From the NCBI GenBank assembly GCA_964639285.1, contig CAZXCI010000001.1:142305-206304 (forward strand): 64,000 bases of DNA, given 5' to 3'. The position numbers and the translations under genes were made by a program. The notes under the pieces were generated by a model, which did no database searches, was not told the DNA's origin, and saw nothing but the letters and a program-made list of their open reading frames with translations. The stretch comes from an uncultured Candidatus Saccharibacteria bacterium (GTDB lineage Bacteria; Patescibacteriota; Minisyncoccia; Phycocordibacterales; XYD1-FULL-46-19). Below, piece after piece: positions 1,411 to 8,164 of the stretch (positions are counted from its first letter, which is position 1; each line of letters begins with the position of its first letter).

Positions 1411-1896
1411 GTGATTAAAACCAATATTTATATTGACGGCAATAATTTATATCGTGGGGCCAAAGAGCTTGGGTTTGAGATTGATTATAAAAAATTTTAT
1501 GGTTGGCTTCGGCAAAAATATGGCTCAGATAATATTTATCTTTTTGTCGGCTTAGTCCCAACCAGAACCAAATTTTACGAACATCTCCAAGAATGTGGTT
1601 TCATTTTAATTTTCAAACAAACTGTTTCGGTTGGGGGAGTGGTCAAGGGGAATTGCGACGCCGAACTGGTGTTAAAAACTGTTTCTGATTTTTATACTAA
1701 AGCATTTGATAAATGCATTCTAGTTTCTGGTGACGGCGATTTTGGTTGCCTGGTAGAATTTTTAGACGATAACTCTGTTTTGGATCGAATCATTTCTCCT
1801 GATGAAAATAAATGTTCAATTTTACTAAGAAACAAAAATACCGAGATTACTTTTCTCAATGAACATTACCATAAGTTTTCTCGAAAATCGCCTTAA
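1411..1896 (+). CDS. NYN-domain (LabA/DUF88-like) PIN-fold putative ribonuclease, GTG start
   Basis: motifs IDGNNLY, NCDAELV and SGDGDF are typical of NYN/LabA-like domains. Confidence 0.65.
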   Translation: MIKTNIYIDGNNLYRGAKELGFEIDYKKFYGWLRQKYGSDNIYLFVGLVPTRTKFYEHLQECGFILIFKQTVSVGGVVKGNCDAELVLKTVSDFYTKAFDKCILVSGDGDFGCLVEFLDDNSVLDRIISPDENKCSILLRNKNTEITFLNEHYHKFSRKSP

Positions 1897-2087: not shown

Positions 2088-3104
2088 TTAATATTTGCGT
2101 TTCTTAAGTTCTTTCTTGGCTGTTTTCATAAACTTTCCAAAGTCACGATCTTTTTCTCTTTTTTCAAGTTTATTCATTTCAAAATATTCAGCTTCCTTTT
2201 TTAGACTAATATAATTAGAATAGTGAGCTTTGTTTAATCTGCCCAAATCTAGAGCCGCTAATACTGCGCACCCAGATTCTTGGACATGGGTACAATCTTT
2301 ATATCTACATCTCTCTGCTAAGCTGGCTATCTCATCAAAGAAGTAATTTATCCCAACAAGATTGCCAGTCATCCCAACTTCGCGCATTCCGGGGTTATCT
2401 ATCACAATTCCTCCATTTTCTAAAAAATACATCTCTCTTTTTGTTGTGACATGTCTACCTCTGGTAGAGTGGGCTGAGATGTCTTCGGTTCTCAAGATGT
2501 TCTTCCCAAGCAATCTATTAATCAACGATGATTTGCCAACGCCAGACGAGCCGAGGAAACAATAGGTCTGGTCTTTTAAAATATGTTTTTTAAGATCATT
2601 TAAATCATTATCATCTATGATACTCGTTAGGATAACCTCTGTATTTTTAAACCTATTTTTTATTTGAGACAGAATTAGATCTAATTCTTCTTGAGAAATT
2701 AAATCGATTTTATTTAACACAATGGCTGTCTCAACCCCCCCATCATTAGCAAGAGCAAAATATCTTTCAAATCGATTGAGATTGAAGTCTCGATCAACCG
2801 ATTCAACGACGAAGGCTTTATCGATATTTGTCGCGATAATCTGCGATTCATTTTTATTATTGCTTTTTCTTTTTAGCATTGTCCTTCTTGGTAAAACTTT
2901 CTGAATCACGGCATTTTCTTGATCAGCCATACTAATAGCCACCCAGTCACCGACAGCTGGATAGTCCTCTCTAGATAGAGACTCAAACATTTGCTTTCCT
3001 GTTATTTTAGCAAAATATTCTCCAGACAAATTTTTTACCTTATAGGCTCCTCTATATTCAGCGACCACTCGCGCCTTTGTTGTTTCATTATTTGTTCTAT
3101 TCAT
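2088..3104 (-). CDS. rsgA: ribosome small-subunit-dependent GTPase A (RsgA/YjeQ)
   Basis: circularly permuted GTPase order NKID (G4) - GSSGVGKSS (G1) - DNPG (G3); N-terminal OB region; C-terminal Zn finger CRYKDCTHVQESGC. Confidence 0.85.
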   Translation of the reverse strand: MNRTNNETTKARVVAEYRGAYKVKNLSGEYFAKITGKQMFESLSREDYPAVGDWVAISMADQENAVIQKVLPRRTMLKRKSNNKNESQIIATNIDKAFVVESVDRDFNLNRFERYFALANDGGVETAIVLNKIDLISQEELDLILSQIKNRFKNTEVILTSIIDDNDLNDLKKHILKDQTYCFLGSSGVGKSSLINRLLGKNILRTEDISAHSTRGRHVTTKREMYFLENGGIVIDNPGMREVGMTGNLVGINYFFDEIASLAERCRYKDCTHVQESGCAVLAALDLGRLNKAHYSNYISLKKEAEYFEMNKLEKREKDRDFGKFMKTAKKELKKRKY

Positions 3105-3185
3105 TCATGGTCAATATACCAAAAATTCCTCAGAGGTTCTACGTCATATTAAGGGTATACAAAAAAGTCATGGCTTTTTAGTGCA

Positions 3186-3388
3186 AAAAGAAAAGCACCA
3201 GTGAAGCAATTCTTCCATAAGCGAATGCTTATGAGTGGGCGGTGTGAACAAGGCCTTGGGCGACCAAAACTTGCTCATGGGCCATTCGCTCGCCACTACT
3301 AGGCCCCCACAACTGGTGCTTTGGCTAACTCTCGTGCTCTAGGCACAGGGCAGGGGTAGCCATGTCCCCACCCGACTGACACCCACAT
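3186..3388 (-). ncRNA. candidate structured non-coding RNA (GC-rich island, class unassigned)
   Basis: roughly 200-nt GC-rich block in AT-rich intergenic DNA. A perfect 10-bp helix (3194-3203 with 3312-3321) encloses a domain with nested perfect helices (gcgaatg/cattcgc, atgag/ctcat, GGGG-N9-CCCC). On the minus strand a TTGACT -35 box lies upstream and TTCTTTTT follows the closing helix. Strand is tentative. Confidence 0.35.
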
Positions 3389-3423
3389 TAGTTTTTATTT
3401 TTTAAAAAGTCAAACAGCAAACC

Positions 3424-3443
3424 CCCTACCAGCTGGTAGGGGG
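3424..3443 (-). terminator. intrinsic terminator of ORF 3454..3849
   Basis: perfect 8-bp stem CCCCTACC-AGCT-GGTAGGGG directly after the stop, followed on the minus strand by a T-rich run. Confidence 0.6.
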
Positions 3444-3453
3444 TAAAATCACA

Positions 3454-3849
3454 TCAAAAAATTCCGCATTCCGCTGCACACTGGCTCGAACAGTATGGGG
3501 AATAATTTCCGGAAAAAAATTGGCAATTGCATCTTGGACAGATTCCTCCCGTCGACGGCACCTCTCCTTTTTTGTGATGGGGTAAAAATCCAGAGAGAAC
3601 CTGAATTTCTACATCAATCTCCAGTGCCTCGTTTAAGGCCGAGGCAATCTTCGCGGCTTCTTCCCCGTCGGTATCACGGACAACGAGATAAGGTGAGTCT
3701 CGATGTTGTTCCGACATATCAAGGCAACAGAGATCTGGACTGAAAGTAATTACTCCCTCGTCTGCCTTTATCCCCAGATCAGTCACAATTTTCGAGATTT
3801 CACTACAGATACCAATTGAACTATGACCGACGATAACTATGTTGGGCAT
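3454..3849 (-). CDS. hypothetical protein with C-terminal zinc-ribbon (CPRCNC...C...CAAEC)
   Basis: ORF track; small alpha/beta-like N-terminal region plus a Cys cluster; own terminator. Confidence 0.5.
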   Translation of the reverse strand: MPNIVIVGHSSIGICSEISKIVTDLGIKADEGVITFSPDLCCLDMSEQHRDSPYLVVRDTDGEEAAKIASALNEALEIDVEIQVLSGFLPHHKKGEVPSTGGICPRCNCQFFSGNYSPYCSSQCAAECGIF

Positions 3850-4033
3850 AAAATCACCTCCTTTCTGAGGTTAAAAAGTCTAGTTCTCGATACAAAAAAC
3901 TTCCGTCTATATTTCTGACAGATTATATACAATTAATCAATAGTTGCTAGTATTTTGCTAGCGTTAGGCTCTGATGCCTGTCCTCTGTCGCTTTAGAGCG
4001 AAGGGGGGTGGAAGGAAGTTAGAACTTGTCTCT

Positions 4034-4555
4034 TTAACTTGAAAATTCAATAGCCAGGCCTTTGGCATAACGAAAACGGCCAAGAAATTTGATAAGGGAG
4101 AGAGCAATGTCATATTTTGTCCCTTCTGAATTCTTGCCAATTTCTAACTCGTCGATCTTTATACTGTGTTTGTCAGTCATAATGGATAATGTTCCAGAAC
4201 GTTCTTTTTCCACAATGGAGTTTAGAATCTTTTTCTCCTTGTCAGTTAGATGCATCTTGCTAACTAATTCGCTGTATTCGAAGACAGAGTTTTCATATTC
4301 TCCACGTTCAGTGACAAGATCTGCCACTTGATTCAAAGCTAAGCCTTGATCAAAAAGCTGTTTAATATTTTTGGCTAGTTCTTTAGCTTTCTGGTTGATT
4401 TCACCGCCAATTTCCTCGGCCGAAACACCAAGGGCTAAGAGGTAAGAAATTTGAAGGTCAGAACCGCTAATCTTGTTGGCAATGACAAAATCTCTTAGTT
4501 GAGCAATTGATTCTTGTCCGTTTTGGTGTTCTTCAAATCTAATTATTGATTCCAT
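4034..4555 (-). CDS. hypothetical acidic protein (173 aa), member of the cassette-like array
   Basis: ORF track; conserved promoter motif TTTTTGATATAATT upstream; conserved 3' flank element downstream. Confidence 0.5.
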   Translation of the reverse strand: MESIIRFEEHQNGQESIAQLRDFVIANKISGSDLQISYLLALGVSAEEIGGEINQKAKELAKNIKQLFDQGLALNQVADLVTERGEYENSVFEYSELVSKMHLTDKEKKILNSIVEKERSGTLSIMTDKHSIKIDELEIGKNSEGTKYDIALSLIKFLGRFRYAKGLAIEFSS

Positions 4556-4627
4556 TTTTTATTATTTTTAACTTATCAACTTTTGTAATAATTAAATTAT
4601 ATCAAAAATCTCTCAACGATTCTATGT

Positions 4628-4664
4628 CCCTGCCCGCATTGCTATGCAAAGCGTTGCAGGCGGG
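4628..4664. repeat. GC-rich hairpin element 'core A' (CCCTGCCCGC-N18-GCAGGCGGG), copy 1
   Basis: 37-nt sequence identical to 8028..8064, inserted into different flanking repeat backgrounds; related copy in reverse orientation at 44402..44428. Confidence 0.6.
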
Positions 4665-5116
4665 CTACGAGAGGTAGCCAAAAACACGTTGTAAAATAAA
4701 GAGAAAAAATAGGTTCCGATGAATAGAAAAAGTTTTTACTACTTTTGTGTAGAGATGATTTTACTATCATTAATTACTTCAATTGCTTTAAAATTAAACT
4801 GGTTATTATAAACCCAAACCCCGATAAGATAGAAGCAATATCATAAGATAAGATACTTCCATTATCAATGATATTTATTAACCCATTGAATATTAAAAGA
4901 CCGGCGATAATAAATAATAAAATAATGAATAGTTTGTTCATTTATATTTTATCTAAAACTTATATAATTATATTTTGCCACAATCTCTTAAAAAATTCGA
5001 GTGTCTTATTTGAAAGAGGGATACAAAATAACCCCCGCTTTAAGGGCTATTTTAGTCTGCTAGCAAAATGCTAGCAATGGCTCCGTTGGGTAGAGAGAGT
5101 TGGAACCTATTTTGTC

Positions 5117-5983
5117 TTATTCAGACGATAAAGTCGGGGTCGAGCCATTATCAAAAACGGTGATCTTTGTCGACTTGCTAATTATATCTGTAGGGCCAGT
5201 AATTCCTAGATCATTAAGTTTAAAGTCTTTGACCGTAATACTATTACCAATCAATGTCGCTCGAATAGTTCTATTTTTTGAACCGGCATCAACCTCAGCT
5301 CTAAGAGCAATATCTACCCATTTATCTTTGAAAAATCCAATGTAGAATTGTTTAAAATGAAAATCAATCCTGCCTGATTCTGAAATCATATCAGTATCTA
5401 ATATTGAGACCCCAGGCTGATCGTCAACAATCTCTATCTTAAAGTTGCGAAATAAATCGGGATCGTAATTTTCAACGTTAAAACTCAAAGTGTGAAGCAT
5501 AATATCCTGATGTGGCCTTAAACTGAAGTTTCCCAAAATGATATTGTTACCCGTTGGGGATATTTTAAAAGTTTGAGTCGGCTCCTGATTTGGACTTAGT
5601 CGTGTATCTACTATAACTAAATTGGTGGCGCTTTCATTTGAAGCGTCGACCGAACTTGTTTGAATCATTGGTTTCTGATCTAAAACTTTAGGAGTTGTTT
5701 CTTTTTTTTCAGCACTATTCTTCTTTTGAGAATAGGTCTCTGTTTGATCTATGTCTTGAGGTGTTTCTGTGGGATTCCTTAAATCTTGATCTATGGGTTC
5801 CTTAACCTTTGTCTGTTGACTTTTTGATCCTATCGCTGGGGTAGTAGAGGCAATAGGAAAAATTTTTCCTTTGAAGAAAAAACTTGAGAAGATATTCCAA
5901 GAAAGGGGATTCCACCAAGAGGCATTAGTTAAAAAGGGGATAGAAACAATTAATAAAAGGAAAATTATTGATATCTTTTTCAT
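5117..5983 (-). CDS. hypothetical secreted protein (288 aa, signal peptide)
   Basis: N-terminal MKKISIIFLLLIVSIPFLTNA signal-like segment; conserved promoter and 3' flank elements. Confidence 0.55.
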   Translation of the reverse strand: MKKISIIFLLLIVSIPFLTNASWWNPLSWNIFSSFFFKGKIFPIASTTPAIGSKSQQTKVKEPIDQDLRNPTETPQDIDQTETYSQKKNSAEKKETTPKVLDQKPMIQTSSVDASNESATNLVIVDTRLSPNQEPTQTFKISPTGNNIILGNFSLRPHQDIMLHTLSFNVENYDPDLFRNFKIEIVDDQPGVSILDTDMISESGRIDFHFKQFYIGFFKDKWVDIALRAEVDAGSKNRTIRATLIGNSITVKDFKLNDLGITGPTDIISKSTKITVFDNGSTPTLSSE

Positions 5984-6087
5984 ATCATTGAATTATATCA
6001 AAAGTCTTTAACCCTATCTAGGTGTCTGCTAGCAAAAAGCTAGCAATTGCTCCGTTGGGTGGAGGAAGTTAGAAATTCTTTGACGAC

Positions 6088-6609
6088 CTAATTACCCACA
6101 GAAACTTTTATCGTACTTGAGATCACGCACTCATGTGATTCATCGAACGGTGTGCTTAAAATTGGGGAACATTTGTCTGTATCCCAGACCTTAAAAAGCA
6201 AGGTGTAATCATATGGTTTAAGATAGGCATAGGTGTGACTGAAAGAAATAGGTTTTGATTGATCATAGAGAACAGAAAAAGGGCCCTCAATACCATCTTC
6301 GCCTTCACCTCCCCACTCGATCTGATATTTTAAATTTGCCCCAGTTGGTGCCGTGATATTTGCTGTCCACTTGCCAGTCTCACCAATTTTAAGTGAGGTG
6401 GGCCCAGAGATAGAATCTATTGATAATTGAACAACCTTTTCGTCAACAATAGTATTGTCATCATTTTCTTTTAGTGAATTATCAGAAGAACTGTCGACTA
6501 GTTCATTGGGTGTAGTAGATTTTTCGTCGCTGACCTTTTTAAATACAAAATAATAAACTCCGCCGACAATCAAAATCAAAGTAACAACTCCAATTAAATA
6601 TTTTTTCAT
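6088..6609 (-). CDS. hypothetical secreted or membrane-anchored protein (173 aa)
   Basis: N-terminal TM/signal segment; promoter GATTTTTGATATAATT upstream; 3' flank element downstream. Confidence 0.55.
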   Translation of the reverse strand: MKKYLIGVVTLILIVGGVYYFVFKKVSDEKSTTPNELVDSSSDNSLKENDDNTIVDEKVVQLSIDSISGPTSLKIGETGKWTANITAPTGANLKYQIEWGGEGEDGIEGPFSVLYDQSKPISFSHTYAYLKPYDYTLLFKVWDTDKCSPILSTPFDESHECVISSTIKVSVGN

Positions 6610-6892
6610 TTTAATTTTTACTATTTAATAATTGGCTTAATTATATCAAAAATCCTCTAGCGATTCTACATCCTATTCGGGGTCACCAAAAAACATATTG
6701 TAAAATAACAAGAAAAAATTGGCTCGCTTGGCAGTCTGCGTTTCGAACTTATGATTGGAGTATGGCCATAGGCGATCTTAAGACAACAACCAAGGAAATC
6801 AACTATTTATTGTCTTTAGTTTGATTATACTCTCGGTAGGGGTGGGGTACCCCCAGATATTTGGTTCCATGTTTTGTATATAAACAACAAAC

Positions 6893-6952
6893 CCGCCTCG
6901 CTCACACGACGACTTGGGTTTGTCGCGGTGTTCGCGGGCGGGGCTAGTCTAC
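6893..6952 (-). terminator. terminator-like GC hairpin repeat (paralogue of 8165..8217) overlapping the stop of ORF 6944..7231
   Basis: AAACCCGCC...GGCGGGGCT hairpin followed on the minus strand by TTTGTTGTTTAT; same element about 1.3 kb away. Confidence 0.5.
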
Positions 6953-7231
6953 GTCAGGGGATTTTGGCTGAGAGAACTCCTCAAAAAGACCGATCGCTAC
7001 AAAACACAAAAAGAGGAACGCGAACCCCAAGACGTAAGGCAAAGGGTCTGTCACCCCACTGAGGGGTAAGAGCATCCCTAAGAGAAAACCGACGAGAAGA
7101 TTCTCTTTGAGCCCCATCTCCCAGGGGTTCTTCGGCTGTTTCCTCTTTATGTAGCTCACCACAAGGCAAGCGATAAGAGAAAGAATAATGTAGCCAAGAG
7201 CGGACAAGAGGTGGACGAAGATAATGTTCAT
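6944..7231 (-). CDS. hypothetical small membrane protein (95 aa)
   Basis: ORF track; three hydrophobic segments; the last two codons and stop (V-D-stop) lie inside the repeated terminator element. Confidence 0.4.
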   Translation of the reverse strand: MNIIFVHLLSALGYIILSLIACLVVSYIKRKQPKNPWEMGLKENLLVGFLLGMLLPLSGVTDPLPYVLGFAFLFLCFVAIGLFEEFSQPKSPDVD

Positions 7232-7456
7232 TTGGTATATCCTTTTCTGTTGAGGAACGTTTCAATGTCTAATTTGATCATAGCACTTACAATGTACTTT
7301 GTCAATATCTTAAATTTAATTTTAAGTTCGGACGTTCTTTTCGGGGTACAAAAATAACTCTTGTTTTAAGGGCTTCAATTTGCACTTCTGCCTGCCGGCC
7401 TCAGTGTCTTCCTTGTCTCCACTCGTTGAGCTCCGATGGGCAGAGGAGGTCCGAAC

Positions 7457-7990
7457 TTATTTTTTATAAAAACTATTATCAGATGCCGTAATCTGTATCA
7501 ACGCATTTCGAAGTGATTCTTCGAGACTGACCTCTCTTAAGATTGCTCCCCCAGAATATGTCCCCCAAGTATCATTTGGAAGTTTTCCAAATTCTTCCTC
7601 AATTAAATGCATAACATCACAGTGCTCCATTTTAAGTTCGTTCATTTTCTGGAGAATATAATCGGGTACCTTTAAACCGCTTGAGTATCCATAGAATTCC
7701 TTTCCATTTTTATCAATTATGGCTGTCCAAGCTTCCTCGTAAATATGTCCATAACGCTCAATTAGGCCACTTTCAAGCCCAATAAAAAAGTCAGCACCAG
7801 GCTCAGTGTTCTTAGCACCTAACGCTCGATTTCTTGATCCGTCGTAGGTTTGTTTATCGTAAGGGGTATCTGGTACTTTTGAATCTGAAGGACAACCCTC
7901 AACAGACACTGGCCCAGTGAATAATTGACTCACGACTTTTTGAGTAATTAAAATTTTTCTATCACTGGTTGAACCAAGAATAATTCTCAT
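7457..7990 (-). CDS. yjjX: non-canonical purine NTP pyrophosphatase, YjjX/DUF84 family (inosine/xanthosine triphosphatase)
   Basis: VSVEGCPSDSKVPDTPY...GSRNRALGA...ADFFIGLESG matches the YjjX signature block (AVESGVPEQPFG...GARNRV...ADFWVAIEAG). Confidence 0.7.
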   Translation of the reverse strand: MRIILGSTSDRKILITQKVVSQLFTGPVSVEGCPSDSKVPDTPYDKQTYDGSRNRALGAKNTEPGADFFIGLESGLIERYGHIYEEAWTAIIDKNGKEFYGYSSGLKVPDYILQKMNELKMEHCDVMHLIEEEFGKLPNDTWGTYSGGAILREVSLEESLRNALIQITASDNSFYKK

Positions 7991-8027
7991 GGCGTAATTC
8001 TATCAAATTTCGAATTAAAGTTCGAAC

Positions 8028-8064
8028 GTCCCTGCCCGCATTGCTATGCAAAGCGTTGCAGGCG
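8028..8064. repeat. GC-rich hairpin element 'core A', copy 2
   Basis: identical 37-mer to 4628..4664. Confidence 0.6.
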
Positions 8065-8164
8065 GGTCTACTCGGGGTACAAAAACAACCCTTATTTTAA
8101 GGGCTATTTTCACGAGCTCCGATGGATACATAAAGTTCGAACCACACTTATCTTTTCATAAACA

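Follow-up and report, generated by a model that had tools for sequence, protein, structure and literature searches.

What kind of element is the GC-rich, structure-rich stretch that lies next to rsgA in an uncultured Candidatus Saccharibacteria bacterium? We analysed a window of 64,000 nt (the whole stretch of DNA considered here, from contig CAZXCI010000001.1 of assembly GCA_964639285.1), in which a preliminary description had singled out positions 3186-3388 as an unclassified structured RNA of about 200 nt between rsgA and a Zn-ribbon protein gene.

A non-coding, GC-rich island separates rsgA from a tautomerase-like gene

The first of these neighbours was confirmed: rsgA is a 338-aa ORF (2088-3104, minus strand; Pfam RsgA_GTPase, E = 1e-48) whose best non-self relatives are at most 74% identical and are annotated as Paceibacteria, Pacebacteria or Parcubacteria. 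The second did not turn out as proposed. The gene on the other side of the island from rsgA (3454-3849, minus strand) encodes a product that starts with Met-Pro and combines a tautomerase-superfamily domain with a Cys-rich tail. A Pfam search with this product gave no match; its family, which comprises about 76 clusters of ~93-aa proteins, lacks a Pfam model. Its predicted fold is confident (pLDDT 85 with a 55-sequence alignment, used instead of an AlphaFold run with two sequences that gave pLDDT 45) and is MIF/D-DT/cis-CaaD-like, with an N-terminal Pro (Foldseek E = 1e-5, from the predicted structure). The transcription unit of this gene is closed before the island by an intrinsic terminator with a 10-bp stem and a U-rich tail (3421-3444, minus strand), and on the minus strand the island is co-oriented with both flanking genes. 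Past the 3' end of rsgA, on the opposite strand, lies a gene for an NYN-domain (PIN-like nuclease) protein (1411-1896, plus strand), for which no link to the island was found.

The island itself spans 233 bp (3171-3403) of non-coding, GC-rich and highly self-complementary DNA, and is bracketed by two copies of the 9-bp direct repeat AAAAAGTCA, one proximal to rsgA (3162-3170) and one distal (3404-3412). The GC content of positions 3186-3388 is 0.547, compared with a window mean of 0.428 and 0.30-0.37 in the flanks. Only 1.6% of 203-nt windows are equally GC-rich, and all the others are in coding DNA. The island is thus sharply GC-rich, as had been claimed, against its local AT-rich flanks, but only moderately so against the genome.

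Could the island be a decayed gene or an ordinary RNA? Stop codons interrupt all six frames, and the longest ORF has 42 aa and a GTG start. A six-frame pseudo-protein query of 5.8 billion proteins by word-indexed search, aimed also at relatives of the island annotated by mistake as ORFs, returned nothing at E <= 10. A degraded coding gene is not supported by these results, which bear out the description of a non-coding, structure-rich and GC-rich island. Rfam 15 at gathering thresholds revealed only two tRNAs in the window, both elsewhere, and nothing in the island. At E <= 10, the region 3100-3480 gave only chance matches of at most 18 bits, which lay outside the core and concerned models that are tiny or irrelevant, and ARAGORN predicted no tRNA or tmRNA gene within 2900-3700. 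These searches agree with the earlier remark that the island matches none of RNase P, SRP, 6S or tmRNA, and no ordinary family was found to account for it. The island is of the size class of 6S RNA and shares with 6S, RNase P, SRP and tmRNA the GC-rich look of housekeeping RNAs; however, it is predicted to fold into a multi-branched junction followed by another domain, whereas 6S is a rod.

Two patches of the island are near-copies of conserved rRNA sites

Comparison of the island with contig L010, which encodes a homologue of the tautomerase-like protein (see below), yielded a common 13-mer, CTAGTAGTGGCGA, which is the core of the universally conserved 23S helix-13 loop. A scan of public genomes and metagenomes for this 13-mer with CTGGTG returned chance coding matches together with three deltaproteobacterial 23S rRNA genes, and it is through these genes that the rRNA identity of the patch was recognised.

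The patch (3279-3306, minus strand, read from 3306 to 3279) reproduces the hairpin of 23S helix 13 as GGGCC-UAGUAGUGGCGAGCGAAU-GGCCC, with a stem pairing probability of 0.74. Its loop and adjoining bases are 21/22 identical to deltaproteobacterial 23S (positions 237-258), and 15 of 16 positions are identical to E. coli 23S 241-256. The CCCC/GGGG closing stem of the rRNA is swapped in the island for a different, perfect 5-bp Watson-Crick stem, and the hairpin shape is preserved. Thirty nt downstream, and like the first patch in sense orientation on the minus strand, lies a copy of 16S rRNA 1386-1404 with flanking bases (3232-3260), corresponding to the 3' strand of h28 and the base of h44. Its core, 3255 to 3237 (GGCCUUGUUCACACCGCCC), is 18/19 identical to 16S 1386-1404 of both E. 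coli and deltaproteobacteria, and a hand alignment over 3260 to 3232 matches at about 23/29 positions.

The LSU and SSU models of Rfam do not register either patch. In a search of the 64-kb window with E. coli and deltaproteobacterial rRNAs, from which the organism's own rRNA may differ, the helix-13 and 16S patches were the two best rRNA-like matches (E = 0.002 and 0.42, respectively), followed by 14-mers elsewhere. The chance rate was calibrated on about 280 kb of non-redundant unrelated DNA (322 kb in all). Matches scoring like the 16S patch occur by chance at about 0.02 per kb, or roughly 0.005 for the island, and the score of the helix-13 patch was reached by no unselected match in the about 280 kb. 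On an unrelated contig (L055), coding regions contain matches of 16/16 (1598-1613) and 19/20 (4135-4154) to conserved 16S and 23S segments, which shows that this score range arises by chance at a low rate.

The resemblance to rRNA ends with these two patches. Further rRNA-like matches of 8-13 nt (23S 1832-1844, 16S 1181-1188 and others) were dismissed, being no more frequent than expected by chance and without preference for either strand. The flanks of the helix-13 patch aligned to the adjoining 23S segments, including universally conserved ones, no better than shuffles did (z <= 0), and such shuffle tests led us to reject a collinear, miniaturised 23S domain I as an account of the entire island. 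An rRNA gene or pseudogene fragment was rejected as well, the collinear similarity to references that are not the organism's own rRNA extending no further than 22 nt and about 19-29 nt. Like orphan rRNA fragments, the island carries rRNA-identical sequence outside an operon and is GC-rich relative to its surroundings. Unlike rRNA pseudogenes, it has only two patches of about 22-29 nt with unaligned flanks, and these come from different rRNAs in an order (23S position ~240, then 16S position ~1390) that is not that of the rRNA operon.

By hand comparison, the 16S patch departs from the universal sequence at A1394U, at G1405A and by an inserted C, and all three departures create a pair with the helix-13 patch. 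The helix between the two patches is present in the predicted folds. Judged from the sequence, these pair-creating departures mildly suggest selection on RNA structure. The rRNA copies shift the question raised by the island, which is now whether it is an rRNA mimic, an anti-rRNA RNA or a scrap derived from rRNA.

An 11-bp closing helix in the predicted fold of the island

All the helices named in the preliminary description are present, with small errors in their coordinates. The closing helix had been given as AAGCACCAGT at 3194-3203 pairing with ACTGGTGCTT at 3312-3321. The former lies one base away, at 3193-3202, and the helix, hereafter P1, has 11 bp instead of 10 (AAAGCACCAGT at 3192-3202 with ACTGGTGCTTT at 3312-3322), with pairing probabilities of 0.78 (minus strand) and 1.0 (plus strand). 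Among shuffles of the island, 0.7% contained a perfect inverted repeat of at least 11 bp. Between the arms of P1 are the helices GCGAATG/CATTCGC (3221-3227 with 3283-3289) and ATGAG/CTCAT (3231-3235 with 3274-3278), the palindrome CAAGGCCTTG (3249-3258), a 4-bp hairpin GAAG-CAATT-CTTC (3203-3215) and a perfect 7-bp hairpin CATAAGC-GAAT-GCTTATG (3216-3233; pairing probability 1.0 on the minus strand), which competes with the long-range GCGAATG/CATTCGC helix. The second domain (3323-3373) comprises a GTGC/GCAC hairpin (3334-3337 with 3343-3346) and a GGGG/CCCC hairpin (3353-3356 with 3366-3369), the latter extending on the minus strand to 8 bp with two G.U pairs.

Part of this region has a counterpart elsewhere in the window. 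Bases 3310-3356 (domain 2) resemble, on the opposite strand, the promoter-proximal intergenic module at 4615-4690 (TTTGGCTAMCTCTCGT plus GGGCAGGG), and may be a recycled intergenic module. This likeness, the abundance of repeated intergenic hairpins and palindromes in the region and the 9-bp direct repeat at both sides would fit a composite intergenic element acting at the DNA level (for example stacked hairpins with a regulatory role, sites bound by proteins, or remnants of terminators) or a non-autonomous mobile element. We regard this as quite improbable, however: the island occurs as a single copy in 64 kb, the 11-bp inverted repeat is not at the island ends and so is not MITE-like, a search of viral contigs for the closing-helix/terminal-repeat pattern produced only four matches, all coding and unrelated, and the rRNA copies would be left unexplained. 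A MITE or other small non-autonomous transposon in particular was rejected, the inverted repeat lying 22 nt and 82 nt inside the direct repeats and the window holding one copy.

Folding and transcription signals point to different strands

The plus strand of the island folds at -79 kcal/mol (z = -3.7), which none of 200 shuffles equalled. The minus strand reaches -78 kcal/mol, which is not significant (z = -1.4; 16 of 200 shuffles as good). Thermodynamics therefore favours the plus strand. In the plus-strand ensemble, P1 encloses a 13-bp helix in which both anti-rRNA stretches pair together. The two G.U pairs of this helix become A.C mismatches on the minus strand. The minus-strand ensemble begins with a 5' hairpin of GGGUGGGG and CCCCUGCCC containing two G.U pairs, followed by the small GUGC/GCAC hairpin and then by P1. 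Enclosed by P1 are the helix-13-like hairpin, a hairpin that uses the start of the 16S-like patch as its 3' strand, a single-stranded ACACCGC, the perfect 7-bp hairpin and the 4-bp hairpin.

Transcription signals on the minus strand are partial. The near-consensus -35 box reported upstream, TTGACT, is present, not at about 3421 but at 3413 to 3408, where it is overlapped by the distal copy of the direct repeat. It is followed after 17 nt by TAATGT (3390 to 3385), which matches the -10 consensus at 3/6 positions, and the resulting promoter-like site (3385-3413, minus strand) was not reported by a sigma-70-like promoter scan. At the other end, the U-rich run that had been noted after the closing helix was also seen: UCUUUUU forms part of the tract UUU-UCUUUUU (3185-3194, minus strand), directly after P1. 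This tract is not a canonical terminator, since its "hairpin" would be a 130-nt branched domain. With a weak minus-strand promoter, no canonical terminator and a better-folding plus strand, an independently transcribed RNA of about 200 nt is not established. The minus strand is nevertheless favoured by the arrangement of the genes, the terminator ahead of the island, the -35-like box, the U-tract and the intact, sense-oriented helix-13 hairpin.

If the plus strand were transcribed, the product would be a small RNA antisense to rRNA, with 19-22-nt complementarity to 16S 1386-1404 and the 23S helix-13 loop, that could pair with nascent rRNA, its own or its host's, during ribosome assembly. The significant plus-strand fold argues for such an RNA, as does the fact that several plus-strand helices, including the 13-bp anti-rRNA helix, use G.U pairs that correspond to A.C mismatches on the minus strand. 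A U-rich run (3391-3402) also follows the island on the plus strand, and in L010 the strand on which the helix-13 13-mer is antisense carries strong terminators and a strong promoter, TTGACT-17-TAATAT. We nonetheless judge this reading unlikely. No plausible plus-strand promoter was found where the divergent rsgA promoter occupies the region, and the two antisense stretches would be sequestered by their mutual pairing in the predicted fold. Moreover, targets that are universal would allow no discrimination between self and non-self, and the region in L010 may be no more than the gene of a 70-76-aa protein.

Archaeal and eukaryotic C/D box sRNAs offer a parallel, as a plus-strand island RNA would likewise be complementary, in two places, to rRNA sites that are conserved. 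These stretches exceed typical guides in length, though, and the organism is bacterial. No C/D-box or H/ACA-like motifs were detected: a scan found no box C (RUGAUGA) on either strand of the island, and its sole CUGA, at 3376 on the plus strand, is neither positioned as a box D nor adjacent to the complementary stretches. We know of no bacterial precedent for a small RNA antisense to rRNA. A shade less credible again is the fuller proposal that a plus-strand RNA, with perfect or near-perfect complementarity of 19-22 nt to one universal site in the rRNA of each subunit, would bind rRNA during its synthesis, and either chaperone or brake ribosome assembly or serve an episymbiont as an effector against ribosomes.

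The island looks like a lineage-specific insertion

In contigs L007-L009, three independent assemblies from the same species, the region is 100% identical, so that they carry no information on its conservation. DNA of this organism is contained in the Logan runs SRR8925803, SRR8925805 and SRR8925775. Blastn and nhmmer comparisons showed that the island is absent from the rsgA loci of the closest relatives (L001, L004 and L005), in keeping with a lineage-specific element. A promoter-like motif, GACGTAGAACC...ATTTTTGGTATATT, lies between the island and the rsgA ATG (3114-3147, minus strand), and its form GGACRTAGAAYC...ATTTTTGGTATATT immediately precedes the rsgA start codon in L001 and L004, both of which lack the island, but not in L005. 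The proximal copy of AAAAAGTCA falls within the conserved region upstream of rsgA, in sequence common to the window and L004. Since the island is missing in the nearest relatives that keep the rsgA promoter motif, and since it is flanked by the 9-bp direct repeat, it looks, from this comparison of loci, like a lineage-specific insertion. With the promoter of rsgA itself downstream of the island, the island does not look like a conserved rsgA leader.

The motif GGACRTAGAAYC-N~12-ATTTTTGRTATAWT recurs ahead of several genes, ending a few bases from the start codon, at minus-strand sites in the window (3114-3147, about 4600-4640, 5985-6030, 6640-6685 and 7995-8030) and in the relatives (L001, 2950-2995; L004, 2975-3012). 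It is most simply read as a putative extended -10 promoter serving near-leaderless mRNAs in this lineage.

No homologue of the island was found in any collection searched. Phage and plasmid collections, searched in distant mode, contained nothing similar. The pattern TCGCCACTACTAG-N5-35-CTGGTG, sought in viral, genome and metagenome collections, gave only chance matches in coding DNA and true 23S genes, and neither the combined helix-13 and 16S pattern nor the exact helix-13 variant was found in viral contigs. The 13-mer also occurs in the repeat DNA of a gene for a 1154-aa Cys-rich protein with repeated CASSGEC motifs on the Patescibacteria contig L027 (3718-7182, minus strand), and likewise on L052.

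The word-indexed protein search returned a single homologue of the tautomerase-like protein (P0122, 52% identical), encoded on L010 (Logan SRR30949882). Next to the P0122 gene is a 300-nt GC-rich region (L010 280-640) that contains the helix-13 13-mer, a 70-76-aa ORF and, on the minus strand, a near-consensus promoter (TTGACT-17-TAATAT) with two or three terminators; either an RNA or a small protein could be encoded there, and Rfam found nothing in this region of L010/L011. L010 was rejected as a homologue of the island: only the helix-13 13-mer and CACCAG are common to both, and the overall alignment is not significant (z of 0.3-1.0 upstream and about 2.1-2.7 downstream). A functional link between the island and the tautomerase-like protein was also discarded, given its enzyme-like fold and three other loci of the family that have neither the island nor a helix-13-like motif.

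An insertion of this kind could be non-functional filler, a short patchwork copied as DNA or cDNA from the genes or transcripts of rRNA and perhaps mixed with other sequence, whose GC-richness and apparent structure would be by-products of its rRNA origin. We consider this possible, and hold it tentatively. Near-identity to rRNA at 21/22 and 18/19 positions suggests recent copying, and the absence of the island from all relatives examined, the direct repeat on both sides and the lack of a homologue in the collections searched are as expected of such an event. The same can be said of the absence of convincing promoter or terminator signals on either strand, and other intergenic modules have been shuffled and duplicated in the same part of the genome. 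However, only about 50 of the 233 nt are rRNA-like, with flanks that do not align to 23S, and the step from 23S position 240 to 16S position 1390 does not follow the operon. An 11-bp helix as rare among shuffles as P1, a 7-bp hairpin and an exactly re-closed helix-13 loop would be unexpected in scrap, and a GC content of 0.55 shows no decay toward the roughly 0.3-0.35 of neighbouring spacers.

Other intergenic sequences of the window are repeated. A 39-nt hairpin-forming sequence, GTCCCTGCCCGCATTGCTATGCAAAGCGTTGCAGGCGGG, is present at 4626-4664 and 8028-8066 in copies that are 100% identical, each just upstream of the promoter motif. The palindrome GCTAGCAAAATRCTAGCAA (3944-3962, 5059-5077 and 6028-6046) occupies three intergenic regions of a cluster of paralogous small genes and looks like an operator site. 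From 4034 to 8000, the window consists of small minus-strand genes without Pfam matches, separated by paralogous spacers (repeat families D1-D11), with a GC content of 0.24-0.40, below the rest, which suggests a region of tandemly duplicated cassettes.

A minus-strand rRNA mimic as a tentative explanation

The explanation we put forward, as a doubtful but coherent possibility that we rate neither above nor below filler in probability, is that the lineage-specific insertion encodes a minus-strand RNA that mimics rRNA. Transcription would start past the terminator of the tautomerase-like gene, near TTGACT-17-TAATGT, and end at the U-tract that follows P1. Inside P1, the RNA would display the helix-13 hairpin copy in sense orientation, then the 16S 1386-1404 strand (the junction of ribosome neck and decoding centre), also in sense, and then short hairpins. 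It may act as a decoy that titrates one or more factors which assemble ribosomes or bind rRNA. RsgA checks the 16S decoding centre, and on this basis the position of the island directly upstream of rsgA may couple the supply of RsgA to the demand for ribosome assembly. The sequence and its capacity to pair, the two rRNA copies with their common orientation, the absence from relatives and the want of coding capacity are observed; the transcription of the island, its strand, its binding of proteins and its regulatory effect are all things that we infer.

What speaks for a mimic is, first, the rRNA copies themselves, the top two rRNA-like matches of the window, 30 nt apart and in the same sense, in which the helix-13 loop was kept while its stem was replaced by another perfect 5-bp stem and each of the three departures of the 16S copy, compared by hand, pairs with the helix-13 copy. 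The structural context is compatible: the closing helix is rare in shuffles (0.7%), and the minus-strand ensemble contains P1 (0.78), the helix-13-like stem (0.74) and the 7-bp hairpin (1.0) together. The site is also apt, lying after a terminator and before the rsgA promoter, co-oriented with both genes and equipped with a -35-like box and a U-tract, and the island is non-coding and outside all Rfam families. Finally, the 30S decoding centre is the binding site of RsgA (PMC5499641), and regulation by rRNA mimicry is an established principle (PMC7247131), which a review cited there documents as well (PMC11633770).

Several observations weigh against a mimic. The want of a homologue means that there is neither covariation nor a sign of conservation. 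The relatives' rsgA genes do without the island, downstream of which the rsgA promoter lies. The minus-strand fold (z = -1.4) does not stand out from shuffles as the plus-strand fold does (z = -3.7), the -10 box is weak and no canonical terminator is present. Identity at 21 of 22 positions looks like recent copying of rRNA rather than evolved mimicry, and a neutral insertion would account just as well for the 9-bp direct repeat at the flanks. The neighbouring protein has an enzyme-like tautomerase fold, not that of an RNA binder, and we know of no factor that needs both 23S helix 13 and 16S 1400.

How far does the island resemble known rRNA mimics? The 23S-methyl motif, found upstream of rRNA methyltransferase genes, is a regulatory RNA that mimics rRNA. 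Like rRNA-mimicking leaders such as those of ribosomal-protein genes, the island is a candidate structured non-coding RNA by a ribosome-related gene and reproduces part of an rRNA site. Known leaders of this type, however, belong to the 5' UTR of the gene they regulate, show conservation across many genomes and as a rule imitate a shape or a handful of nucleotides, whereas the island is near-identical over 18-22 nt to two rRNAs, is not conserved and has the rsgA promoter after it. The resemblance to rRNA sites thus holds for the island, but a 5'-UTR location and conservation with rsgA do not, as the loci L001, L004 and L005 indicate.

The island is real and statistically unusual; its reading as a structured RNA is partly supported, and a function for it is something we infer. 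Interest in the locus rises with the two rRNA copies, which no known family explains, and what was a vague "unknown sRNA" has become three sharply testable alternatives. If the island were only filler, it would document the capture of short rRNA patches into intergenic DNA and serve as a warning that GC-rich "structured" islands can be rRNA debris. If the antisense reading were true, it would be the first trans-acting anti-rRNA RNA of bacteria. Should the island prove to be a functional RNA, bacteria would have a stand-alone RNA with literal copies of conserved sites of the two ribosomal subunits at its core. Such an RNA would give a natural handle on assembly factors or proteins that recognise isolated 23S helix 13 and the 16S neck/decoding strand, and it would add a rare non-coding RNA gene to the gene-poor and little-studied CPR bacteria.
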